Virus record (IMG/VR): IMGVR_UViG_3300034375_009028
Origin: a virus
Lineage: Duplodnaviria > Caudoviricetes
Length of the DNA stretch: 64,000 bases
Direction: 5' to 3' (one strand)
This document shows, piece after piece, positions 8,862 through 43,207 of this stretch (position 1 is the first letter of the stretch; each line of letters begins with the position of its first letter). Made by a program: the position numbers and the translations under genes. The notes under the pieces are model-generated. The model saw only the letters and a list, made by a program, of their open reading frames with translations, did not search any database and was not told the origin of the DNA.

Positions 8862-9029
8862 TTAATCAAATAAAGGATCAAGTTCAATAAGTTCAGGGTC
8901 AATGTCTGCACCTGAATAAAATTGCTCAGATAGATCTTGGATGATATCCGAGCAATCGTCGAATGAGAGGTTTTTGTAAATTACTCGACCATTATAGCAT
9001 AAGTTATAACGGCCTTGTGAATTACTCAT
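8862..9029 (-). CDS. Hypothetical protein (likely start MSNSQG)
   Basis: ORF track 8862..9080; the ATG at 9029 overlaps the upstream stop (ATGA). Confidence 0.65.
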   Translation of the reverse strand: MSNSQGRYNLCYNGRVIYKNLSFDDCSDIIQDLSEQFYSGADIDPELIELDPLFD

Positions 9030-9814
9030 CAAATTACGCGAGTCTTTTCGTGTCCAACACGAATACGAGGATCGCACCAAGTCTCAATACCTGCTTCCTT
9101 TGCATCCAGACAGAAGGACACGTCCTCTCCACACATATCCTGAACTGCTCCAGATTCAAAGACTTGCATCTTAGGTGCGAACCAGGGGTACTCAAGACGC
9201 TCAAAGACGCCATGACGAATCATAACCCATCCAAAACCTGTATAATCAACTGTGAATGGTTTACGACGCTTCGAGATGCTCTCCACAGTCTCGTGATTCA
9301 TCACCCCACCATTACGGCGGAAGTCCTCTTCGTCCAACCAGTGGGCAACCGAGGTGGTTTGCCCATCCTCAGTAGCATACCAACCAGCGACAATCTCTCG
9401 CTCATCCTGAGCATTACCGTCTTTATCTGGTCCAGGTACTGCAAGATCGCACAGTTGCCAGAACTTTTGACTATTAAAAACAATGTCATTATCAATCCAA
9501 AGTTGATAATCATACTTCAATTTGCCGTCCCAGGGAATTTGATTGGGTCCGCGCAACACGTTTGCACCAAGACACTTACAACGTGCAAAGTTAACCATCG
9601 ATGAGTAGTCCTGTGAGATTTGGATACTCATGTTGTTTTGTACAAGGTCAAAGCATAGTTGCACAAAACTCTTTAGGAATGTATAAGAACAACCGCGCCC
9701 AGGCAGACAGAACACAATGCTCTTGCCTTGCATACGCTCTTTAATTGCATCATAATCCCAGTCTTCCTTCGGCGCAGTCGGTGCTGCTGCCTTTACAGTA
9801 AATCCTTTTGCCAT
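9029..9814 (-). CDS. Conserved cyanophage GT-A/GT2-like glycosyltransferase
   Basis: MAKGFTVKA N-terminus; DxD-like WIDNDIVF, TGFGWVMI and GEDVSFC motifs of the GT-A fold. Confidence 0.7.
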   Translation of the reverse strand: MAKGFTVKAAAPTAPKEDWDYDAIKERMQGKSIVFCLPGRGCSYTFLKSFVQLCFDLVQNNMSIQISQDYSSMVNFARCKCLGANVLRGPNQIPWDGKLKYDYQLWIDNDIVFNSQKFWQLCDLAVPGPDKDGNAQDEREIVAGWYATEDGQTTSVAHWLDEEDFRRNGGVMNHETVESISKRRKPFTVDYTGFGWVMIRHGVFERLEYPWFAPKMQVFESGAVQDMCGEDVSFCLDAKEAGIETWCDPRIRVGHEKTRVI

Positions 9815-9862
9815 TTTAGAATAATTCTCTCAGATCAATTTTAACAGTTTATATGTAGCAAG

Positions 9863-10030
9863 TCAATATGAAGATTCTGCCACCATGTCCTTATTTATCT
9901 CTAGTTTCTCATACTCATAATTCTCATCATCAAGATTGTCCCACTTCTCACGGAATTCTTCTTCAGTTAATACTGCATATAAACATTGATTCCTTTTGTT
10001 ATAAATGTGATAAACTGTCTGTGATTCCAT
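9863..10030 (-). CDS. Hypothetical protein (likely start MESQTVYHIY)
   Basis: ORF track 9863..10081, trimmed to the ATG after the upstream gene. Confidence 0.6.
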   Translation of the reverse strand: MESQTVYHIYNKRNQCLYAVLTEEEFREKWDNLDDENYEYEKLEINKDMVAESSY

Positions 10031-10040
10031 ACAAAATTCA

Positions 10041-10184
10041 TTATCGGAACGTATTATATATGACCATAATGAGAATTCCAATGCTAACTAAAAAACCCTT
10101 CGGGTGCTTCGCAATCCAATATGTAAAGATTACTCTCCACATGTTCCAATAAGGTCTTCGGCGGCGCATCATAAAAATTCTCAT
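10041..10184 (-). CDS. Small membrane protein (47 aa)
   Basis: Hand translation MRIFMMRRRRPYWNMWRVIFTYWIAKHPKGFLVSIGILIMVIYNTFR; TGC-TATAAT extended -10 immediately upstream (about 10192-10200). Confidence 0.65.
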   Translation of the reverse strand: MRIFMMRRRRPYWNMWRVIFTYWIAKHPKGFLVSIGILIMVIYNTFR

Positions 10185-10387
10185 TGATTCTATTATAGCA
10201 CCTTTTTACCCGAAAAATTTTCTGCGAGATTTTTTTATATACCTTATAACACACACTCGAATTGTCACCTCTGTAGGTTAGAGGGACCCGCTCATTATAA
10301 ACGCAGGGGGCCGCATTAGTATAACTTATCGATCGAATTAACTGCCATAAGGAATGCTGATCAATGAAATGTGTCCGCACGAACAAT

Positions 10388-10415
10388 AAAAAACCCCCGC
10401 ACGAATGCAGGGGTT
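10388..10415 (-). terminator. Intrinsic terminator
   Basis: Minus strand AACCCCTGC-ATTCGT-GCGGGGGTT followed by a T-run. Confidence 0.7.
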
Positions 10416-10431
10416 AAGTATACCTAACTCA

Positions 10432-10519
10432 CGGGTCGCTGGGTATAAAGAACTCAGCGACTCTAAGTGTTGCTCTCACGCATAAAAGGGTCGCTGAGTT
10501 CTTTATACCCAGCGACCCG
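10432..10519. repeat. Perfect 30-bp inverted repeat with self-complementary arms
   Basis: CGGGTCGCTGGGTATAAAGAACTCAGCGAC (10432-10461) is the exact reverse complement of 10490-10519; 28-nt spacer. Confidence 0.95.
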
Positions 10520-10530
10520 CTAAATGTAAC

Positions 10531-10788
10531 TTAGTGTGCCATTACGATGTAACGGAAGAATGTACCTTCTGCCAATTCTTCATCACTAGCGTCACAAATA
10601 GCAGTCCACGCAGGAACACTATTCGGACAATATACATCAACAGAATCTACAACGTCATCAGGAATAGCGTCAATTGTTGCTCCAAACCGCGCCCATAGTG
10701 TGCGGTTGCTAAGATCAAAATCGAACGATTCATCAATCGCAGCAATCCAATCGGTTTCAGATTGCAGTTCGGAGATGGTAAGTGCCAT
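10531..10788 (-). CDS. Hypothetical early protein
   Basis: ORF track, 85 aa, acidic. Confidence 0.7.
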   Translation of the reverse strand: MALTISELQSETDWIAAIDESFDFDLSNRTLWARFGATIDAIPDDVVDSVDVYCPNSVPAWTAICDASDEELAEGTFFRYIVMAH

Positions 10789-10843
10789 GAGAATTGAAAG
10801 AATCAGGGTGTGAGATAAGGGGGACGATTGTCCCCCGATTGTT

Positions 10844-10978
10844 CTATTCTTCGGGACCGAAAGCGCACTCTAGAGAGTACATTTCCAGTTCCTGATCATC
10901 ATCATAAACTGCCTGCCAATCCTCATCAGTGGGAGTGTAGATTTCTTCAATCTGCTGCTGATCAGTGAAAGGATTCAT
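10844..10978 (-). CDS. Small acidic hypothetical protein (44 aa)
   Basis: Hand translation MNPFTDQQQIEEIYTPTDEDWQAVYDDDQELEMYSLECAFGPEE; TATCAT -10 upstream. Confidence 0.65.
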   Translation of the reverse strand: MNPFTDQQQIEEIYTPTDEDWQAVYDDDQELEMYSLECAFGPEE

Positions 10979-11050
10979 GGGGTTGTCTGTGTGGGACTTG
11001 ATCATGATAGCGACTAGGGGGGCACCCCGTAGGGTGCCCGTTACCTTTGT

Positions 11051-11332
11051 TCACACTACAGCGGCGGCGATCAGATCACGCTTGCGACGGGTGGAGGGCA
11101 TGGAAAACCAGAGGTCCCGCTTGCCAGTTTTCTGATTTCGGGTTGCTGCCAGTTGCCCACGGGTTTCCAGATCCACCAGCACGGCGTGGATGGTGCCCTT
11201 GTGGCGCTTAGGATCAAGACCCATGGCGCGAACTAGGTCGGTGCCTGTCATCGGACCTTTCTTGATCAGGATGCTGCGGGCAGCGATGCGGATCGCGGTG
11301 TGGAAGCAACGGTCGATTGCGGTGATGATCAT
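11051..11332 (-). CDS. Winged helix-turn-helix DNA-binding protein
   Basis: ILIKKGPMTGTDLVRAMGL..KGTIHAVLVDLETRGQL...DLWF has the helix-helix-recognition helix-wing pattern. Confidence 0.6.
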   Translation of the reverse strand: MIITAIDRCFHTAIRIAARSILIKKGPMTGTDLVRAMGLDPKRHKGTIHAVLVDLETRGQLAATRNQKTGKRDLWFSMPSTRRKRDLIAAAVV

Positions 11333-11382
11333 GGTCTGGGTTGGGTTGTGCGGGTGTGTCCCGCGTGATCTAATGATAACGC

Positions 11383-11547
11383 CTAGAGGGTCACCTGCCA
11401 GGTCGTCGGAGCGGGTTTGTCACAATCTGAAATAATGAAAAGTTGTGAGAGAAAGTGTTGCCATTCAGCATCAGTCATCACCACACAATTCTTTTCATCA
11501 AGTTCGCGTTGTGCGCGTTCGGAAAGTTTCAAGCGGAGATCTTTCAT
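11383..11547 (-). CDS. Small hypothetical protein (54 aa)
   Basis: Hand translation MKDLRLKLSERAQRELDEKNCVVMTDAEWQHFLSQLF... Confidence 0.5.
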   Translation of the reverse strand: MKDLRLKLSERAQRELDEKNCVVMTDAEWQHFLSQLFIISDCDKPAPTTWQVTL

Positions 11548-11557
11548 TGTTCTGATG

Positions 11558-11719
11558 TCAGTTTTTTGTGGACTTGAAAGTTACAACCTCAGCAGGAGAT
11601 CCGCAGGAGCGATAGAAATCAACCATACGGTTTGCCTCATCAATAGTGGCAAATGTTTGCTCTCTCCACTCACAAGAATTGTAGGGAGTTTGGTAGCGAA
11701 TAGTGATGCCGATTGCCAT
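11558..11719 (-). CDS. Conserved cyanophage small protein (53 aa)
   Basis: Hand translation MAIGITIRYQTPYNSCEWREQTFATIDEANRMVDFYRSCGSPAEVV. Confidence 0.7.
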   Translation of the reverse strand: MAIGITIRYQTPYNSCEWREQTFATIDEANRMVDFYRSCGSPAEVVTFKSTKN

Positions 11720-11770
11720 GATGTTAAGGTGAAGAATGGGAGGGGGATTGCTCCCCCTAAGTGTTTCAAA

Positions 11771-12016
11771 TCAGGCGGTGATTTCCATCCACTTGATCGG
11801 TTGAATAGTTCCCATTTTCCAGATGGTAACTTTTCTCCCGTGCAGTTCTACACTCCAATCGAATGCAGCATCCCTGGCAGAATCGAAATCAGAAAACATT
11901 TCGATCATTGCCTCGTTAAAGTTGAAATCAGGACCGATTGCCCACATGATGCTCGTTTGGGTTGTGCGAGGTCCGTTGCCTCGCTTGAATGTATATTTGC
12001 ACCGATCGGGGTGCAT
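11771..12016 (-). CDS. Hypothetical early protein
   Basis: ORF track; DSARDAAFDWSVELHG pattern; true start may be downstream. Confidence 0.6.
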   Translation of the reverse strand: MHPDRCKYTFKRGNGPRTTQTSIMWAIGPDFNFNEAMIEMFSDFDSARDAAFDWSVELHGRKVTIWKMGTIQPIKWMEITA

Positions 12017-12024
12017 TTCAAGCG

Positions 12025-12222
12025 TTAGTGTGCGCTTTGCCGATTGGCACGTACCTTTGCAATTGTTTTCTTTATGTTTGCAATTGCGCGATGATCGCTG
12101 ATAGTTTTGGCGGTGACAATTTGCACACCGTCAGCATCACGCCAAACATAATGTTTCTTCTCACGGACTAGTTCAAATCCGCAGGATTTCATGTACTCTT
12201 TTAGAATGTTTTTGGTTTTCAT
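12025..12222 (-). CDS. HicA-like (dsRBD-fold) mRNA interferase, no HicB partner
   Basis: GFELVREKKHYVWRDADGVQIVTAKTISDHRAIANIKK matches the HicA pattern G(F/W)xxxRxxxxH...(T)PSD.RA..N. Confidence 0.6.
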   Translation of the reverse strand: MKTKNILKEYMKSCGFELVREKKHYVWRDADGVQIVTAKTISDHRAIANIKKTIAKVRANRQSAH

Positions 12223-12257
12223 GATAAAGAATGGGGGGCAATCGCCCCCCTGTTAGG

Positions 12258-12872
12258 TTAGATCAAACCCTTGTGAATGCGACGGTATGCAACCCATGTG
12301 ATCGCTTGAATTTGCGATGCTAGGTGTACCTTACCTGTCACCTCAGAGATTAACTTAGCAGCGTCACGGTAAGCATCTTGAATCTTACCGAAAGTCTTGT
12401 CTGACATAGCAGGAACCGCTTTCAGGTTAGAAACACTGCCGTTCCAAACATTGTAGGCGTGACCATCAATGCAAGGCGTGTCACTTTTACCATCAGTGGC
12501 AATACAGAGAAAAAATGCGATAGTTTTGTTGCCACGCAATACTTTCACAATTTGCTCCCTTTTAAGTTGCAAATCAAGAATCATGATCGCCTTATCTTTG
12601 TTTGCAGAGTAACTACAAACAGAGACAGAATTGTAGGGGATTTCATATGCCCAGGCACGCAACATTGCCTCAGCATCCTCTACATTTCTTTCCCACTTAT
12701 TGTTTGGGGAAAGTGCAGCGATCACACCTGCCACGATGTCAGAATCGACACCATACTTTTCGCCAAGGTCAACACAAACGCCATAGGCGTTGCTGTACCA
12801 TTGCAGACCTATTTGGCGATCGAGAGTGTTGCTCTGGAAATACATCGCAACGATCGAATCAGTGTGTGCCAT
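12258..12872 (-). CDS. Phage protein with HhH-GPD/EndoIII glycosylase-like features
   Basis: GLQWY..A, VIAALSPNNKWERN, LRGNKTIAFF and CIDGHAYNVW (cf. glycosylase VDxH), QIQAITWV; widespread phage family. Confidence 0.55.
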   Translation of the reverse strand: MAHTDSIVAMYFQSNTLDRQIGLQWYSNAYGVCVDLGEKYGVDSDIVAGVIAALSPNNKWERNVEDAEAMLRAWAYEIPYNSVSVCSYSANKDKAIMILDLQLKREQIVKVLRGNKTIAFFLCIATDGKSDTPCIDGHAYNVWNGSVSNLKAVPAMSDKTFGKIQDAYRDAAKLISEVTGKVHLASQIQAITWVAYRRIHKGLI

Positions 12873-18369: not shown

Positions 18370-18556
18370 AGTCAAATCGCTCCTGCCATAATTCAGTAAG
18401 TTTTTCACGTACACTCTTGAGCGCACATACTTTGTCTGGATCTTCTTCACGATAGTCGTAAAGTGCATAGTATGCATCCAACATTTGAACGACTGAAGAG
18501 ATAAGAATTTCATGTTCTTCACATGTCATCTCAAGATTCATTTTATCTTCATTCAT
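18359..18556 (-). CDS. Hypothetical protein
   Basis: ORF track trimmed to MNEDKMN (ATGA overlap). Confidence 0.65.
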   Translation of the reverse strand: MNEDKMNLEMTCEEHEILISSVVQMLDAYYALYDYREEDPDKVCALKSVREKLTELWQERFDYGA

Positions 18557-18819
18557 GCTGCTACCTCCACAACATATGCACTCTCCCATACATTATAAAA
18601 CATATCCCATGCCCATTCATCAGCAACAAAACTCAATAGATCACATTGATCACATACCCAATCATAGGCAGCATCACAATCTGCATTGGTGTCTGCTACA
18701 AACTCATACAGTTGTGCAATCGTACTGCGGAACTTTGGATCCTCTACATTGCTGATGAAGAACTTACCTTCATCCATCATGATGTGCTTACCAGTGATGC
18801 TGAATGATTTGGTGTACAT
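18553..18819 (-). CDS. Hypothetical protein (paralogue of 15664..15837)
   Basis: FRSTIAQLYEFVADTNADCDAAYDWVCDQC. Confidence 0.7.
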   Translation of the reverse strand: MYTKSFSITGKHIMMDEGKFFISNVEDPKFRSTIAQLYEFVADTNADCDAAYDWVCDQCDLLSFVADEWAWDMFYNVWESAYVVEVAA

Positions 18820-18861
18820 GGTGTTTTTTGAAGAAGAGAACGTGTGTCCTGTACAAATGAA

Positions 18862-19083
18862 TTATAGAGTATCGAACAATGCTCGCAACTGCTCCTGTGC
18901 CACCTTGCTCGGTGGCATACGGTCGAACTTGCTCAACTGATACCCCTCCTTCAATGCTTGCATAATAATGTTGTCATATGAATGAGAATGAAGAGGAATG
19001 TGACGATGATTCAAATAATCCTCACAATCCTCTGCAAGTTCCTCCTTTAACTCATGTGACAGCAAATTTAAATTAATGTTCAT
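18862..19083 (-). CDS. Conserved cyanophage hypothetical protein
   Basis: EELAEDCEDYL.HRHIPL.SHSYDNII.QAL.EGYQ. Confidence 0.7.
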   Translation of the reverse strand: MNINLNLLSHELKEELAEDCEDYLNHRHIPLHSHSYDNIIMQALKEGYQLSKFDRMPPSKVAQEQLRALFDTL

Positions 19084-19358
19084 AGTGACAATGATGCCCA
19101 ACGATCAATGTTACTATTATAATACACATTGATGACATCTGTCACACATTGGTTACATTCTGAATCACTAAATCCCCATTCACGATGATTCTCATACAAA
19201 TAATTGTATGCATACTTCTGTGCAATGATGGGATTGTCGTGGCGATTCAAAATACACAACAAACGTGTATTCACACGATCAATCACTTTGTCAGGAGTGT
19301 CAGTGTAACACTCCCACTCACTGCGCTTGATGACCAGTTGCTTCTCAGATACAATCAT
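19080..19358 (-). CDS. Hypothetical protein
   Basis: ORF track, 92 aa. Confidence 0.65.
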   Translation of the reverse strand: MIVSEKQLVIKRSEWECYTDTPDKVIDRVNTRLLCILNRHDNPIIAQKYAYNYLYENHREWGFSDSECNQCVTDVINVYYNSNIDRWASLSL

Positions 19359-19361
19359 GAC

Positions 19362-19511
19362 TCAAAACTCCCGAACAATCGAAGGCAGTTCTTCAGTGGG
19401 GAACTCACTGTCAATGTCCAGATCATTCCAATCCATAAAGTTTTCTTCCATCAACTGCTGAAGTTTCCATTCGTTGTAACTGTCAGCACCATCAAACAAA
19501 AGAGTTGCCAT
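19362..19511 (-). CDS. Small acidic hypothetical protein (likely start MATLLFD)
   Basis: ORF track trimmed to the ATG after the hairpin at 19524-19552. Confidence 0.6.
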   Translation of the reverse strand: MATLLFDGADSYNEWKLQQLMEENFMDWNDLDIDSEFPTEELPSIVREF

Positions 19512-37960: not shown

Positions 37961-38178
37961 TGTACAAAAATAGTTCCAGATTTGGGTTTGGTACGATGCT
38001 TTTTAATGAAGTTCATCGCAGATGATTGAGTTCTACATTGTTTAAGATGCTCGCCATAGTATACTACCATATATCCTTTTTGACAAGGTACAGCAGCGTA
38101 TCCATCTTTAGTTACAAAACCATCACTACAATCCTTGTAAAAATTGTAAATTTCCTTTAGTTCTTTATCAGTAGTCAT
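37957..38178 (-). CDS. Conserved cyanophage hypothetical protein
   Basis: GFVTKDGYAAVP...GYMV.Y.G......RT..SA..FI..HR. Confidence 0.7.
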   Translation of the reverse strand: MTTDKELKEIYNFYKDCSDGFVTKDGYAAVPCQKGYMVVYYGEHLKQCRTQSSAMNFIKKHRTKPKSGTIFVQ

Positions 38179-39422
38179 CGTTTGATAGTGGAGATTGCTG
38201 GTTGACCTTTTACAAATACGGTATCTACAACGTCCTGAAGACGCTTAATAGTAGAGATACCCACGTTGTCGTAGACAGGGACATGGACAAGACCAAATGA
38301 TTTAGTGTAATCTTCCAGTTTGCCAGGAGTAAGAGTTCCATTCTGAATCCTCTTGATGTCATCAAGATGAAGGCGAATAACCCTACCAACAGACTGACAC
38401 ATCTCAATAACATTCATCTGACGCATGAGGATCAGAGAAGTGAGACCAGGAACAGAGATGCCTTCACTGAGAATAGAATAGTGCATAACAATGAACTTCT
38501 TGTCTGGATCTGCACCAAACTCTTGAATCAGACTAAAGAATTCTTCGCGGGTAATCTTCCTATCGTTTAAGAAGGCACCATGCTTGCTAGTGATCCAAAG
38601 AAGGTCATACCCCATAGACTGCACTTCTGTCATGAAGTCTGTCTCAGCAAGCATCCGCAGCATTACCTTTGTGTTTGGTGCTGCGATCAGAACCTTCTCC
38701 ATATGATCTTCATTGTAGATGGTATCAAGCAGGGTCATACAGTCCCTCTCTGCCGCCTCCTCGCCCTTCAGACGGTCGGAACCGACGCGAATGGTGTTGA
38801 TCTTAGGAGGAAGGATTGAACCGTCGTTAATGAGGCGTGGAGCGGGCACGTTGTAAATGATACGGTTGTAAACCTCAGTATCATTCATGCCAGGTTTGGA
38901 AGAAGTGTGAGAATACTTAGGAGTAGCAGTGAAGAAATAGCAGCGGTTAGAATTAAGAGAGAGATTCCTGGTAGCACCAAAGAAGTTTTTCTTGATTGAG
39001 TTGTGCGATTCATCAAAGTAAACTGTGTCAACATGAATATTGGAATCTACAACTTTATGAAGAGAGTTGTAGGTGGTAAAGATTATACAGGACTCTGATG
39101 CTGCACGGGCAGTATTGTTAAAAAGTGCAATCTTTTCTGGTTTAGTGGTATTGAAGTAAACGGTCTCTCCCGTATGAACATGACAAACATGGACCCAGGT
39201 AGAGGGAAGAAACTTCATAAAGTCTTCACGCAATTGCTTTGCTAGAAGAATGCGAGGAGCAACAACAACGATAGTCTTAGGACCAGACTTAAGTTGCTCA
39301 AGTGCATCTGCAACCATCGTGAAGGACTTACCTGCCCCAGTGGGCATAACGATGATTCCTTTGCGAACTCGATCCATGATGGATCGTGCTTCTGCCTGTG
39401 TCGGTCGGAGGTTAAGGGTCAT
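38175..39422 (-). CDS. Superfamily II DExH helicase (restriction-subunit-like)
   Basis: MPTGAGKS (Walker A), FDESHN (Walker B), FTATP, LSEGISVPGL, QSVGRVIR; own TG-TATAGT promoter at about 39443-39451. Confidence 0.9.
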   Translation of the reverse strand: MTLNLRPTQAEARSIMDRVRKGIIVMPTGAGKSFTMVADALEQLKSGPKTIVVVAPRILLAKQLREDFMKFLPSTWVHVCHVHTGETVYFNTTKPEKIALFNNTARAASESCIIFTTYNSLHKVVDSNIHVDTVYFDESHNSIKKNFFGATRNLSLNSNRCYFFTATPKYSHTSSKPGMNDTEVYNRIIYNVPAPRLINDGSILPPKINTIRVGSDRLKGEEAAERDCMTLLDTIYNEDHMEKVLIAAPNTKVMLRMLAETDFMTEVQSMGYDLLWITSKHGAFLNDRKITREEFFSLIQEFGADPDKKFIVMHYSILSEGISVPGLTSLILMRQMNVIEMCQSVGRVIRLHLDDIKRIQNGTLTPGKLEDYTKSFGLVHVPVYDNVGISTIKRLQDVVDTVFVKGQPAISTIKR

Positions 39423-39480
39423 GGGTCGTGTGCGTTGAACATACTATACAGCAAAATCCCCCCGTTTGGGGGGGATGCGA

Positions 39481-39897
39481 TCAATCCATAAATTGGTCTA
39501 ATGTGATTGGTCCCATTGTACCATCAAAACGATAATGATATTCTAAAGCATTTGCACAAACATAATGATGATGGTCTGTTGGGACACCCAACCTCCTACA
39601 CAACTCCTTGTGGTTATCTTCCATGAGTTCAACTGCATAAAGCATGTTATTGAGCACATGCTCTTCAGAATGGTATTTTGTCAGGACTTCAAACAGTTCA
39701 ACTAAGAAGTTACCATCACCAGCACAGTTGTCGATAAAGGAAGATTCTGGATCTTTAAGAACTTTTTCTGGAAGATCACCAATCATCTTCCGAATAAGTG
39801 CAGGAGGAGTAAATACCTCCTGCGTTTGCTTGATACGCTCATCTGAGCGTTCAAGTTTAGATCCATGCTCCTTGTTGTGACTGTTCTTAGATGACAT
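39481..39897 (-). CDS. SAM-binding half (motifs X, I, II, III) of an N6-adenine DNA methyltransferase
   Basis: EVFTP (X), FIDNCAGDGNFL (I), LYAVEL (II), CANALE (III); no NPPY. Confidence 0.75.
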   Translation of the reverse strand: MSSKNSHNKEHGSKLERSDERIKQTQEVFTPPALIRKMIGDLPEKVLKDPESSFIDNCAGDGNFLVELFEVLTKYHSEEHVLNNMLYAVELMEDNHKELCRRLGVPTDHHHYVCANALEYHYRFDGTMGPITLDQFMD

Positions 39898-42800
39898 TCT
39901 TTTCCTCCAAATATTTTACCTCCTCTTCAGTAAAATTGAATTGATCAACAAGGTTGTTATAGTCCTTAATGTGAGGTACTTCCGCATTCTTAATAGCAGC
40001 AGTATATCCCGCAGTTTTTTTATAGTTATCAATATAAAACTGAATGAGTTTATTATCAAAAATCTTACTAAGGGCATTCCCCTCTTCTTCTGAAGTAATA
40101 GGACACCAAACATTAAGCATACCAACATATCCATTTGAGATAAACTTGTGCTTTTTGTACGTGCGGGAGTATCCTACAATAAACTTCAACACTTCACCAG
40201 TAGTAGGAATGACATTTGTACGAGCAATAAAATTACCAGATTGATAAACCTCATACTTACCATCAGGAACATATTCACTCTTGGCAATGTCCTGACCCAT
40301 CTTCAAGGGAATGCGAGGATGCATTGAATTGGCAATTTTGTTGAGAATAGAATGCTTAAGTGCAGCATCTCCAATGAGAGGAAGACCATCTCGCAAATCC
40401 CAAGTAAAAGAACCATCATGAGTAATAACATGAGTTTTACCTTGATATGGTTCATTTGTAAGATGCCAACGGCAAATGGCAACACCTTCGACAAAATAAT
40501 CATTTGCAGTATAATCGATCAGTTTTAGATTATACTTTGTAGAGAACAATTTAAGGAACTTCTTACCTTTACCAGTTGTACCCAGAACAGAGGAAGGAGT
40601 AACCTCACACATGTCTCCACCAGGAGCAGTAAGTTCAAGATGTTGCTCTACAATAATTGGCCAAAGTTTATTGTTTTTTGCCTTCTTAGTGGGATCTTTA
40701 TAGGGTGGATTAGCAATAATAGCAGTGAACTTCATATCAGGATTCGAATCAACAATATCTACAACATCATTTATATATTTTACACGATTACGGTGACTAT
40801 CACAACTCTCCCAAACAGTAATACTATTTGGATCCAGGTCCCTTTCAAGAAGGCGAGCAGTATGAGATCCACTAGGATCTCCAAACATATAAATTTTAGA
40901 TAGATCTTTACAATCATCAAGCATAGAATCCAAAAGATCTGTGGGAATATGCCTTTGCATTTGTGAAGACACACTGTACTTATCTAATGTTTTTGCCTTA
41001 GACTCTTTAAACTGCATTTTTATAGAAGAACTAAGCATCAGGATTTTGCCATTGATTGCATTCTTACCACTAGGATTTTTGGCAATAACTTTTTCAAGAA
41101 TTTTATAATGATCGCTAGTAATATTTTTATAAACTTCAGTTTCAATAATAGAGTTAATTGTACACACTTTAATGTCTTCAGAAATAAGATAAGTCATAAC
41201 AAGAGGAATAGACTCTAAAAGTGCCTTAACCGTCTTTACCCGTTGTGTTTCTGGATTGTCCGATTTTTCTTTATTTTCTTTTTGCCTGGATTCACAACTT
41301 TTATTATTAACACCCACATTATTAGTATTAAGTTGACTGTTATCAATCTCATCGATTAGATTTGTTTCCAAAGCAAAATCGGAAAAATCAATATCATTAA
41401 GATCAAGTCTACTTACAATATTAGCAAAACTAGAATTTGTATCATCACAAATTGTACACAAAATTTCATCAATCTTATTCTGATCTAATTGGATAAACCC
41501 ATTCATCCAATCATTAATACTATCAACAAAGTCTAGCATTTCATATTGTGCCAATTCTGGTTCAATATCAGTTGCTTTTTGATAGGATTCGCAAATAACA
41601 CGAAGTCCACGTTCTGCATCAAAATCAATAACATCCCAATCATGATCTGCAGATCCTCCACGAAAAGAAAATTGCTCCCAAAACTCTTTTGATTCTCCTC
41701 CACGGCAATTGATAACAGTATCAATGTATTTGCAAGTCATACCAAGAACATTAGCACTACATGTAAGAATAAGTGCTTTAGAATTGCGGGCACAAAAATT
41801 ATTGATCGTATCTTGATCTTCATTAGTATCTCCAGTAACCACAAGAGTTGGAATGTAACATTCTACAATTTTTTTAAAGGCATGACACTCACCAACTCCT
41901 TTCATCGCCATCATTTGATAGTTACCTTGAAACAAACGATTATTAAGTCGAAGTCTAGATGTTTCTGGTCCATAAAATTTTACAGCGTAAGCACGAGGAA
42001 GAGAATCATAAAGAAACTCAGAATCTTTTCCTTTTTTCTTTTCTTTCAGAGTAAAAATATTACTCATGGCATCTGGATCATCACCAAAAATCTTTTTATA
42101 TTCTTCACATTCATACTTAGCAAAATGAATCCTCATCTTAGGACGAGGTTTTTCAAAAAGTCCCTTACGAACATCCAATTGCTCATGCCAATACGAATAT
42201 ACAAAACTATTTTCATTGTTAAAATCAGGAGACAGTTTATCTGCTGTGCCAGTGATTAAAAGAAGTTTAACTGTCTCACCATTGGCAGCATTGAGTTTTT
42301 CATGCACAGTTGTAAATTGTTCTGCCCTACCACCAACATGTGCCTCATCAAGTGCAATGAAGTCAATTTTATAGTTACAAATGGTATTAATACGATTAGA
42401 GATGCTTTGAACTGTTCCCCAAAGAACAATATTTACACCATCATGTTCCATCCAGAACTCAAGTTCCTCTTCCCATTTACTGTCTTGAACATTAATAAGT
42501 TTAACAGATGGAAAATATTCTTGATCATCAATCCAACCTTCTTCTGGAGAAGTTGTCCGACAACAAAGAAGAGTCAACTTATAATTAGCACTTACGATAT
42601 GACTGAGTGTCATGATACATTTCCCAGAACGACATTTAGCGTTCAGGAGAAACTCTTTCCAAATTTCCCATGCAGATTTAATTTTTACAAGAAATTTTTC
42701 TTGAAAATGCATAAGATTGAGTTCTTTTGCAGGTTCAACAAAAACTTCATCAAATAATTTACGAACAATAAAAGAACAAGTTTGCACAATTTGATCTACA

Positions 42801-43138
42801 GAATACCCAGTGAGAATAAAACATTCATTTGACCCCCTACCAGGATTTGAAACGCAATTTGGGAACAATTTAAGATCTTTATGACATTTTTTATCACAAC
42901 CAGATCCAGTTGCAGAAATTCCAAACCAAAAAGTTGTATGTTTTTCACCAATAAGATTCCAATATCCAATGAGTTTTGTATACTCTACATCATTATGCCG
43001 CTTTTCTTTCCTAGAATCTTTAGTTTGTCCAAAAAAGAATGCTTTACTATCCAAATTAATTAGCAAATAAATCCAAGTATTAATCTTGCCACCACTAAGG
43101 TCAAACTCTGTTTGATTTTGAAGAAGAGAAGTAATCAC
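39887..43138 (-). CDS. GIY-YIG-like nuclease + SF2 helicase + methyltransferase catalytic half (NPPY) and TRD fusion
   Basis: WIYLL..FFGQT..R at the N-terminus; LNAKCRSGK, LDEAHVG, ITGT helicase motifs; IIANPPY and PGG..CEVTP at the C-terminus. Start moved from the track's 43192 to the GTG at 43138 because the track start lies inside the promoter. Confidence 0.75.
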   Translation of the reverse strand: MITSLLQNQTEFDLSGGKINTWIYLLINLDSKAFFFGQTKDSRKEKRHNDVEYTKLIGYWNLIGEKHTTFWFGISATGSGCDKKCHKDLKLFPNCVSNPGRGSNECFILTGYSVDQIVQTCSFIVRKLFDEVFVEPAKELNLMHFQEKFLVKIKSAWEIWKEFLLNAKCRSGKCIMTLSHIVSANYKLTLLCCRTTSPEEGWIDDQEYFPSVKLINVQDSKWEEELEFWMEHDGVNIVLWGTVQSISNRINTICNYKIDFIALDEAHVGGRAEQFTTVHEKLNAANGETVKLLLITGTADKLSPDFNNENSFVYSYWHEQLDVRKGLFEKPRPKMRIHFAKYECEEYKKIFGDDPDAMSNIFTLKEKKKGKDSEFLYDSLPRAYAVKFYGPETSRLRLNNRLFQGNYQMMAMKGVGECHAFKKIVECYIPTLVVTGDTNEDQDTINNFCARNSKALILTCSANVLGMTCKYIDTVINCRGGESKEFWEQFSFRGGSADHDWDVIDFDAERGLRVICESYQKATDIEPELAQYEMLDFVDSINDWMNGFIQLDQNKIDEILCTICDDTNSSFANIVSRLDLNDIDFSDFALETNLIDEIDNSQLNTNNVGVNNKSCESRQKENKEKSDNPETQRVKTVKALLESIPLVMTYLISEDIKVCTINSIIETEVYKNITSDHYKILEKVIAKNPSGKNAINGKILMLSSSIKMQFKESKAKTLDKYSVSSQMQRHIPTDLLDSMLDDCKDLSKIYMFGDPSGSHTARLLERDLDPNSITVWESCDSHRNRVKYINDVVDIVDSNPDMKFTAIIANPPYKDPTKKAKNNKLWPIIVEQHLELTAPGGDMCEVTPSSVLGTTGKGKKFLKLFSTKYNLKLIDYTANDYFVEGVAICRWHLTNEPYQGKTHVITHDGSFTWDLRDGLPLIGDAALKHSILNKIANSMHPRIPLKMGQDIAKSEYVPDGKYEVYQSGNFIARTNVIPTTGEVLKFIVGYSRTYKKHKFISNGYVGMLNVWCPITSEEEGNALSKIFDNKLIQFYIDNYKKTAGYTAAIKNAEVPHIKDYNNLVDQFNFTEEEVKYLEEKNVI

Positions 43139-43162: not shown

Positions 43163-43192
43163 ACTATAACCCATAAAAAAGGGGGGTGTCAA
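43163..43192 (-). promoter_or_regulatory. Sigma70-type early promoter
   Basis: GGGGGG-TTGACA-CCCCCC..., 18-nt spacer, TATAGT. Confidence 0.85.
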
Positions 43193-43207
43193 CCCCCCTG
43201 TTCCACC

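Follow-up and report, generated by a model that had tools for sequence, protein, structure and literature searches.

Two adjacent genes at positions 39481-43138 of a 64,000-nucleotide stretch of viral DNA (IMG/VR record IMGVR_UViG_3300034375_009028; Duplodnaviria, Caudoviricetes), hereafter the window, encode what appear to be the two halves of a DNA adenine methylase, one of them joined to a nuclease-like domain and a motor. The source virus is a freshwater T4-like cyanomyovirus, whose closest cultured relatives are P-SSM2, P-SSM5, S-SKS1, S-CAM7, Bellamy, ACG-2014f and MA01. Freshwater metagenomes contain the exact window DNA, and a megablast search of the locus against GenBank phages gave no match. 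The features of the locus, which includes a superfamily 2 (SF2) motor, an S-adenosylmethionine (AdoMet)-binding small protein and a target recognition domain (TRD), are as follows; residues of the large protein are numbered as in P0001 (1101 aa from TTG 43192).

43180..43199, minus strand: hairpin of six G, loop TTGACA and six C, then six T, the likely terminator of the upstream 1938-aa structural gene
43163..43192, minus strand: predicted sigma-70-type early promoter, TTGACA at 43192-43187, 18-nt spacer, TATAGT at 43168-43163 (11 of 12 matches)
39887..43138, minus strand: large gene, 1083 aa from GTG, its frame being open from TTG 43192 (P0001, 1101 aa)
42743..43081, minus strand: T5orf172/MUG113-like (GIY-YIG clan) nuclease-like domain, residues ~38-150, with WIYLL, FFGQT, R65-H66 and E123
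41513..42730, minus strand: SF2 helicase-like ATPase of two RecA lobes, residues ~155-560, with AKCRSGK (motif I), DEAH (II) and QFSFRGGS (VI)
40961..41512, minus strand: helical linker or 'coupler' from motor to methylase, residues ~561-744, in part predicted with low confidence; ratio of nonsynonymous to synonymous polymorphism (pN/pS) 0.43
40733..40960, minus strand: cis N-half of the methylase, residues ~745-820, with HIPTDLL (motif X-like), β1 IYMF, loop GDPSG, ITVWE and VDIVDS
39890..40732, minus strand: catalytic half, β4 through motif VIII, and C-terminal TRD; NPPY at residues 828-831, nt 40700-40711
39904..39908, minus strand: putative Shine-Dalgarno GGAGG, 6 nt before the ATG of the small gene and inside the end of the large gene
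39481..39897, minus strand: small gene, 138 aa (P0002), overlapping the large gene by 11 nt in the +1 frame
39456..39476, minus strand: terminator-like hairpin directly after the small gene, with equivalents in relatives

The large and small genes appear to form a discrete early bicistronic unit between two hairpins, as judged from those hairpins, the promoter, and the small gene's own GGAGG and ATG at the overlap. The first hairpin lies directly after the stop codon of the structural gene and its loop is the −35 hexamer of the promoter, which is the best site in a 6-kb scan. Because promoter-like sites overall are not enriched over shuffled sequences (25 found, 20.7 expected), the case for this promoter depends on its position and on its conservation in relatives; hairpin and promoter are also kept upstream of the homologous gene at L008, L009, L010, L014 and L016. 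The start codon lies downstream of the −10 element in L008 and L010. As both promoter elements lie upstream of GTG 43138, and the L016 homologue starts at a GTG aligned with it, this codon is most likely the start of the large gene, giving a protein of 1083 aa. After the second hairpin, a further TATAGT heads the next gene, a ResIII/DEAD helicase (38175-39422). Contigs 100% identical to the window were found in four freshwater metatranscriptome libraries, with both genes covered, three bridging the junction and one also spanning the upstream hairpin and promoter; these contigs record presence in RNA libraries, where carried-over DNA is possible, and were not used as proof of an operon.

From its N-terminus, the large protein would comprise a T5orf172-like domain, an SF2 translocase, a linker, and a gamma-class N6-adenine methylase with NPPY and TRD. 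Synechococcus phages MA01, MA10, ME01 and MC09 encode full-length homologues (37% identity), which automatic annotation calls 'type II R-M restriction subunit' (R-M, restriction-modification) or 'Eco57I'; the window's protein matched none of the PADLOC or NCBIfam restriction models. The first domain was recognized through 14 aligned homologues (alignment A3), one of which matches Pfam T5orf172 (2.5e-5) and two MUG113 (2e-3), the window's own N-terminal sequence matching neither. G55, R65 and E123 are invariant across these homologues and the tyrosine of the IY pair is kept. The AlphaFold2 (AF2) secondary structure of the domain is β-β-α-α-β-α. Given the matches of its homologues to GIY-YIG-clan families, the domain is unlikely to be an Mrr-like PD-(D/E)xK nuclease. 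The motor is matched by phrog_16 (1.2e-7) and, in 9 of the 14 homologues, by ResIII (best 2e-11); Foldseek aligns it with the SF2 translocases Chd1, Mot1, RadD, EcoR124I HsdR, SauUSI and ZorD (E 1e-9 to 1e-12). Its motif VI, QFSFRGGS, has a single arginine. In a motor-less arrangement, seen in S-SKS1 215 (L002:4665-6044), P0179 and P0184, the T5orf172-like domain is fused directly to the methylase, a Type IIG-like layout that is again followed by a small gene.

Residues 745-1101 can be assigned, on profile matches and predicted fold, to a gamma-class (Eco57I/TaqI-like) N6-adenine methylase with a TRD. IIANPPY occupies residues 825-831, where N, P and P are invariant and Y is nearly so in an alignment of 17 homologues (A1). 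Pfam Eco57I (PF07669) matches residues 808-900 at 31.7 bits (cut-off 25.3), and since the match starts at profile position 60 (positions 60-171 of 171) only motif IV onward is covered; phrog_3689 matches the whole domain. The AF2 model of the domain, with a predicted local distance difference test (pLDDT) score of 74, is a Rossmann fold with the strand order 3-2-1-4-5-7-6 of solved gamma enzymes, in which β1-β3 precede β4, and its Foldseek matches are CamA, M.TaqI, M.BseCI and HsdM (probability 1.00, E 1e-9 to 1e-12).

The small protein, P0002, carries motifs X, I, II and III and has the features of the canonical AdoMet-binding half of a gamma-class adenine methylase, encoded here as a separate chain. 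EVFTP (motif X) lies at residues 27-31, FIDNCAGDGNFL (motif I) at 54-65, YAVEL-MEDN (motif II) with YAVEL at 87-91, and CANAL (motif III) at 114-118. The chain ends about 20 residues after CANAL, at the point where β4 and NPPY would start and where the single-chain enzymes P0022 and P0080 continue straight into NPPY (in these two, the ones read, FDVIVGNPPY follows within ~10-15 residues of the small protein's end point). It belongs to phrog_4376 (5e-59) and matches phrog_21201, 'DNA methyltransferase', at 1e-12; the Pfam N6_Mtase match extends over profile positions 21-89 of 311 only. E27, F29, P31, G60, G62 and N95 are invariant in a 21-sequence alignment of the family, the N-terminus is conserved from its first residues, pN/pS is 0.21 among the 10 sequences of the window's clade, and an identical protein is encoded on 41 contigs. 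Searching the Protein Data Bank (PDB) by sequence with the small protein or the methylase domain returned nothing usable.

An exhaustive search at E<1e-3 recovered 1005 representative clusters of the small family, the top 150 of which were sorted by form. Most of these 150 (95, median 146 aa) stand alone; 15 form the N-terminal half of ordinary gamma enzymes, 13 are fragments shorter than 100 aa, and two (P0019 and P0097) are permuted chains with motif IV/NPPY first and the small domain C-terminal, P0097-type proteins being present on 12 contigs. The best homologues of the window's catalytic/TRD half outside cyanophages are single-chain gamma enzymes (P0071, P0121, P0120 and P0080). Their residues ~6-100 match the small protein, and residues ~106-410 align over the full length of the window's catalytic/TRD half, with E values from 7e-15 to 6e-5. 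As all four chains match both parts, the small protein and the C-terminal half of the large protein correspond to two halves of one enzyme type.

The original prediction had described much of this anatomy: two genes over 39481-43138, the larger of ~1080 aa, under one early TTGACA/TATAGT promoter; a 138-aa product carrying motifs X, I, II and III alone; and a large chain that opens with a GIY-YIG-like segment, continues with a full SF2 helicase and closes with motif IV onward and a TRD, the whole resembling the nuclease-translocase-methylase fusion of type ISP enzymes. The open reading frames (ORFs), the bicistronic unit with a promoter conserved in relatives, the motif limits on both sides of the β4/NPPY boundary, the helicase and the ISP-like layout all bear it out, with a different nuclease family from that of the ISP enzymes. 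The GIY-YIG call is right as to clan, T5orf172/MUG113 being the better name, one reached via homologues only.

The large chain also contains Rossmann-type sequence before β4, its cis N-half, where the canonical motif I (D/E-P-x-x-G-x-G) does not occur; the consensus loop, D-N-C-A-G-D-G, lies on the small protein. The large-chain loop, F-G-D-P-S-G-S-H, has one glycine and is ~3 residues shorter than the canonical form. In AF2 domain numbering β1 spans residues 53-56 and helix A begins at 62, leaving three residues from the Asp to the helix as against six in a canonical loop or the small protein. No Pfam model and no small-family hidden Markov model matched the cis N-half, and when the small family was compared with the methylase-domain alignment profile to profile (hhalign) no match emerged; homology between the cis N-half and the small protein is suggested by predicted fold, not by sequence. 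Across the 17 homologues of alignment A1 the invariant columns begin with NPPY, and none precedes it. Their cis loops read DPSGSH, DPKGTH, KEPGxG or DAHGHF, or are absent, and the motif III Asp is replaced by Ala in L018, L019 and L026. A further variant is encoded by gene 53 of ACG-2014f Syn7803C16 (L006:5067-6080), in which a GDPSG/ITVWE N-half and NPPY are followed by two tandem phrog_5172-type C-terminal domains, TTHPDFEF occurring twice.

The association of the two genes was surveyed by a pattern scan of IMG/VR with the small-family alignment, which yielded 80 loci (37 clusters at 90% identity). An NPPY catalytic gene accompanies the small gene in 73 of the 80. In 69 the NPPY ORF lies immediately upstream, typically with a 4-20 nt overlap, and in four a phrog_7683 gene or a helicase gene sits between the two; of the remainder, five are cut by the contig end and two have no partner that was found. 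The upstream ORF starts at motif IV in 27 of the 80 loci (NPPY at about residue 8; 186-284 aa) and has a non-consensus N-half in 42 of the 69, and D/E-P-x-x-G-x-G occurs in cis in none of the 73 partnered loci; L075 and L077 have a TaqI-like E-P-E-C-A-G-A cis loop of normal length. Every member of the window's clade has a coupled half-methylase gene of the 138-aa type. Close homologues of the window's catalytic/TRD half in L028-L034 are 279-284-aa ORFs that start at motif IV, so that these loci hold the methylase pair without nuclease, motor or N-half, and the small proteins encoded there form the sister clade to the one containing the window's (support 100/98). For such catalytic-only relatives, the supply of AdoMet in trans by the small protein seems nearly unavoidable from the sequences.

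Cultured isolates show the same pairing. In P-SSM2, gene 036 begins MKFTLAIGNPPY and is followed by 037; the corresponding genes are 215 then 214 in S-SKS1, 86-87-88 in Bellamy and 051-052-053 in ACG-2014f, and MA01 has a full-length homologue of the large gene with the small gene 580 nt further on. Two unrelated types of neighbour recur with the methylase pair, with or without a helicase: a T5orf172-like domain or a phrog_7683 protein. The latter (~190-200 aa) lies between methylase and small gene in ACG-2014f (gp052, L003:6482-7084) and Bellamy (gp87, L007:4896-5459), and is also encoded in L043, L045 and L072. Its D...Q-x-K pattern, a motif reading that Pfam and the PDB sequence search left unconfirmed, suggests a nuclease-like (PD-(D/E)xK/Mrr-like) protein. 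S-CAM7 (L005, NC_031927) has two small-gene pairs, at 9010-12561 and 18462-19477: the first consists of a split motor gene and a methylase gene followed by the small gene (gp055, gp056, gp057), and the second of a 205-aa catalytic-only gene followed by the small gene (gp076, gp077). Within the window there is a single small-type ORF and a single NPPY module, and that module is thus the only possible partner for its small protein.

Domain anatomy, operon structure, co-occurrence, complementary motifs and homology to the two halves of single-chain enzymes are observed directly. In all likelihood the small protein is a genuine subunit of the Eco57I-family methylase module of this phage, of which it bears the only consensus AdoMet site. 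The two proteins probably bind each other, and supply of AdoMet in trans to the window's own enzyme is the best single explanation, one towards which we incline. The small protein would be a stoichiometric subunit of the methylase module, bringing an intact AdoMet pocket to the NPPY half through pairing of its β1 edge with β4. The cis N-half, having lost the consensus glycine loop, would serve mainly as a structural element or linker, or would be displaced. The product of the small gene would derive from the same enzyme lineage as the methylase of the large gene, and its own GGAGG and ATG would couple its translation to that of the large gene. We entertain more tentatively the proposal that the assembled enzyme methylates the phage's DNA and cuts DNA that is unmodified.

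Structure prediction of the complex, which the original prediction had asked for on the pair, was run on the methylase domain, the small protein and AdoMet with our own alignments, and lends weak support to binding. The score was 0.40 (runs 0.40, 0.57 and 0.23), the best of three controls reaching 0.01; the runs agree in at least 78% of contacts, partner pLDDT is at least 80, and no interface is reported. In a benchmark whose counts apply here only roughly, as alignments of our own and an AdoMet ligand were used, 58 of 80 solved complexes passed the mark, as did 2 of 110 mismatched pairs; both of those mismatches, but only 7 of the 80 solved complexes, passed with a score of 0.60 or less.

Several observations weigh against the view that the small protein supplies AdoMet in trans. 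A score of 0.40 falls in a band where such predictions are more often wrong than right unless the interaction was likely beforehand. The AF2 model gives the cis N-half pLDDT values of 78-95, with a motif X helix and β1-αA-β2-αB-β3 docked on β4, so that the site the small protein would occupy is filled in the model. Among the 10 sequences of the window's clade the cis N-half is under purifying selection (pN/pS 0.27, amino-acid identity 0.74; 0.22 and 0.80 for the catalytic/TRD half), and acidic residues are kept at its motif I and II positions (D772 and E795). Motif I of M.TaqI is itself non-consensus (EPACAHG) and yet the enzyme binds AdoMet, and a non-consensus loop is thus no proof that binding is lost. 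In the distant loci L088, L092 and L094 the small gene overlaps the end of the gene for a complete canonical gamma methylase whose motif I is of the textbook kind (FLDPACGRGTF, for instance), showing that the small protein is not always a substitute for a missing half; L091 is catalytic-only again. Finally, in 25 of the 150 best-ranked family representatives the half-domain is fused to non-NPPY sequence of no recognized kind, and the AdoMet-binding half may therefore have a separate role outside methylases. Seven such fusions (P0024, P0034, P0039, P0045, P0014, P0023 and P0110), whose added C- or N-terminal parts (100-350 aa) lack NPPY and match no Pfam family, hint at the same use. The original prediction of a two-subunit enzyme is therefore upheld by the co-occurrence across cyanophages that it had asked to see surveyed and by the complementary halves, and is qualified by the complete methylases of L088, L092 and L094 and by a cis N-half that is folded and constrained. 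Likewise HIPTDLL, FGDPSGSH and ITVWE are present as it had described, but 'decayed' does not suit them: selection and model together indicate that the segment is constrained and non-canonical rather than decaying.

These points could be accommodated if the large protein were a self-sufficient gamma methylase whose complete and confidently modelled cis N-half binds AdoMet. The small protein would then be an accessory, either a regulator or switch that sits next to the catalytic half or competes for it, perhaps timing modification against restriction, or the retained fragment of a second tandem methylase gene. The small proteins of the complete-methylase loci fit a truncated second gene in that they end in YHYRFDGTPPY, like a vestigial β4/motif IV; in the tree they are not recent copies of their neighbour's N-half. 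A mere relic, however, would not be expected to keep its AdoMet motifs invariant or its pN/pS at 0.21. Self-sufficiency is also hard to reconcile with partners that lack any N-half (27 of 80 loci), with the absence of a consensus cis loop from all 73 partnered loci, with a cis loop ~3 residues short, and with the loss of the motif III Asp to Ala in three members of the clade. We regard this alternative as rather unlikely. Less plausible by far is an anti-defence decoy, in which the small protein would bind the catalytic halves of host methylases or R-M enzymes or soak up AdoMet. Many family members do stand alone or are fused to domains of unknown kind, and expression would be early, but nearly every locus couples the small gene tightly in translation to a phage NPPY gene, and the small and large parts match two halves of the same single-chain enzymes. 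That the pair is a single chain, permuted in the order IV-VIII, TRD, X-I-III and joined by programmed frameshifting or broken by a sequencing error, can hardly be credited. Fused permuted chains exist (P0019 and P0097) and the ORFs overlap by 11 nt, but the split recurs at 69 loci drawn from many assemblies and in cultured phages as well, 41 contigs encode the identical small protein, and no slippery heptamer is visible at the overlap. The frame relation varies as well, being +1 in the window and the P-SSM2 type and ATGA (−1) in S-CAM7 056/057, L092 and L094. Together with the small gene's own GGAGG and ATG and the conserved N-terminus of its product, these points led to the rejection of a frameshift fusion.

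A separate issue, which does not depend on how the small subunit is viewed, is what the module does for the phage. A restriction function is suggested by the ISP-like domain order, the invariant GIY-YIG-type residues and the recurring nuclease-type neighbours. A fair alternative, though one we think improbable on balance, is self-protection (anti-restriction), in which a motor-driven processive adenine methylase would mark phage DNA early, as has been proposed for DarB of phage P1, and the T5orf172 domain would act in DNA binding or recombination instead of cleavage. DarB is a methylase-helicase fusion and virion protein with an anti-restriction role, and orphan methylases are common in phages. 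Like DarB, the window's large gene encodes a phage protein that joins adenine-methylase and SF2 helicase domains; unlike it, the gene has an early promoter and a different domain order, and tblastn detected no similarity to DarB, all matches being to Synechococcus phages. Self-protection fits the early promoter, the single arginine of motor motif VI, the lack of a PADLOC or NCBIfam restriction-model match for the large protein, the methylase pairs of L028-L034 that have neither nuclease nor motor, and the recombination role proposed for the T5orf172 family (PMC7824862). It accords less well with the invariance in 14 homologues of the catalytic-type residues of the GIY-YIG clan (R65, E123 and the IY tyrosine), with the recurrence of a nuclease-type partner (T5orf172-like in the window; in Bellamy and ACG-2014f a phrog_7683 protein whose motifs suggest a nuclease), and with a domain order equal to that of Type ISP enzymes.

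Type ISP enzymes such as LlaGI and LlaBIII consist of one chain in the order nuclease, SF2 translocase-like ATPase, coupler, gamma N6-adenine methylase and TRD. The window's large chain has the same order, with an SF2 ATPase between nuclease-like domain and methylase, but at ~1083 aa it is much shorter, its nuclease-like domain belongs to the T5orf172/GIY-YIG clan rather than being Mrr/PD-(D/E)xK, and its own methylase motif I is non-consensus. It also differs in having a coupled, separate gene for a 138-aa AdoMet-binding subunit, and in its setting, a lytic phage with an early promoter, where it is known so far from sequence. With gamma methylases of the Eco57I/TaqI/CamA type (PF07669; PDB 2ADM, 7LNI) the window's enzyme shares NPPY, a Rossmann core and a C-terminal TRD, whereas its canonical X-I-II-III half forms a polypeptide of its own, whose coding sequence lies downstream of that for the catalytic half. 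A precedent for division into two polypeptides is M.AquI, a naturally split cytosine-5 methylase whose alpha and beta subunits must assemble (Karreman & de Waard 1990; Pinarbasi 2002; both as cited in PMC5944983). The window's DNA methylase resembles it in being apparently encoded as two polypeptides and departs from it in being an N6-adenine enzyme, in a division that falls at β3/β4, between motifs III and IV, in a reversed order of the two genes, and in a large chain that retains a degenerate cis copy of the detached half.

Across relatives the methylase takes the forms [N-C]+[N], [N*-C]+[N] (the window), [C]+[N] and the fused permuted [C-N], where N and C are the AdoMet-binding and catalytic halves and N* the non-consensus cis N-half. 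From their sequences these look like natural intermediates of circular permutation. In a 444-aa protein, P0152, a single NPPY is preceded by a tandem pair of canonical N-halves (WFDPAVGKGAF, WFDPAVGIGNF), which makes this chain the fused counterpart of two N-halves plus one catalytic half. Permuted EcoKI-like adenine methylases have been noted in phages before (PMC7824862), and the single chains P0019 and P0097 share their IV-VIII, TRD, X-I-III order. The path of architectures matches the permutation-by-duplication model proposed for methylases and tested on M.HaeIII (Peisajovich 2006, doi 10.1038/ng1717), which, as recounted in PMC5944983, expects intermediates with two N-halves to work. Relative to the permuted enzymes and to that account of the model, the states here are separate, translationally coupled genes in natural phage populations, and the window's two N-halves are not recent duplicates of each other in the tree. 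In the N-half tree the cyanophage small proteins form one clade (99/99); the tree has a midpoint root only and long branches, and the direction and order of change in the series are accordingly not fixed by it. We put forward as a speculation, and an unlikely one in its full extent, that the AdoMet half is a free, exchangeable subunit in abundant T4-like cyanophages, which in Type ISP-like enzymes of the window's sort swaps with a degenerate cis pseudo-half to switch between cutting and self-marking, and that the architectures are living permutation intermediates.

A literature search found no paper describing the module, and the pair is annotated as 'hypothetical protein' in P-SSM2 (036/037, T4-GC 33/34), S-SKS1, S-CAM7 and Bellamy. 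The pair turns up often in marine and freshwater viromes and can now be given a testable function. If AdoMet is indeed supplied in trans, this would be, as far as we know, the first adenine methylase seen to be naturally split at the β3/β4 boundary, and one of the few circular permutations whose successive states all exist in nature. Should the large chain prove to cut DNA, it would represent a Type ISP-like enzyme with a GIY-YIG-clan nuclease on a lytic phage, which would bear on host-DNA breakdown, competition between phages and the reading of phage methylomes. A detachable cofactor subunit is also of interest for the engineering of split methylases.

Some minor features of the locus were seen in passing. 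At both gene boundaries, 43163-43199 and 39440-39476, a GC hairpin with a T-run is reused at once as a promoter. In the regions upstream of the large-gene homologues of L008-L017 the stem is kept and TATAAT is constant, and the loop varies (ttgaca, cactg, tacta, cattg). The T-run between hairpin and −10 element is longer by one base, at window position 43174, in a single RNA-library contig (run X17), which suggests that the length of the T6 tract is polymorphic in the population. The G+C content is 0.42 over window positions 38001-40000, a segment covering the helicase gene (38175-39422) and the small gene, compared with ~0.32-0.36 on either side.

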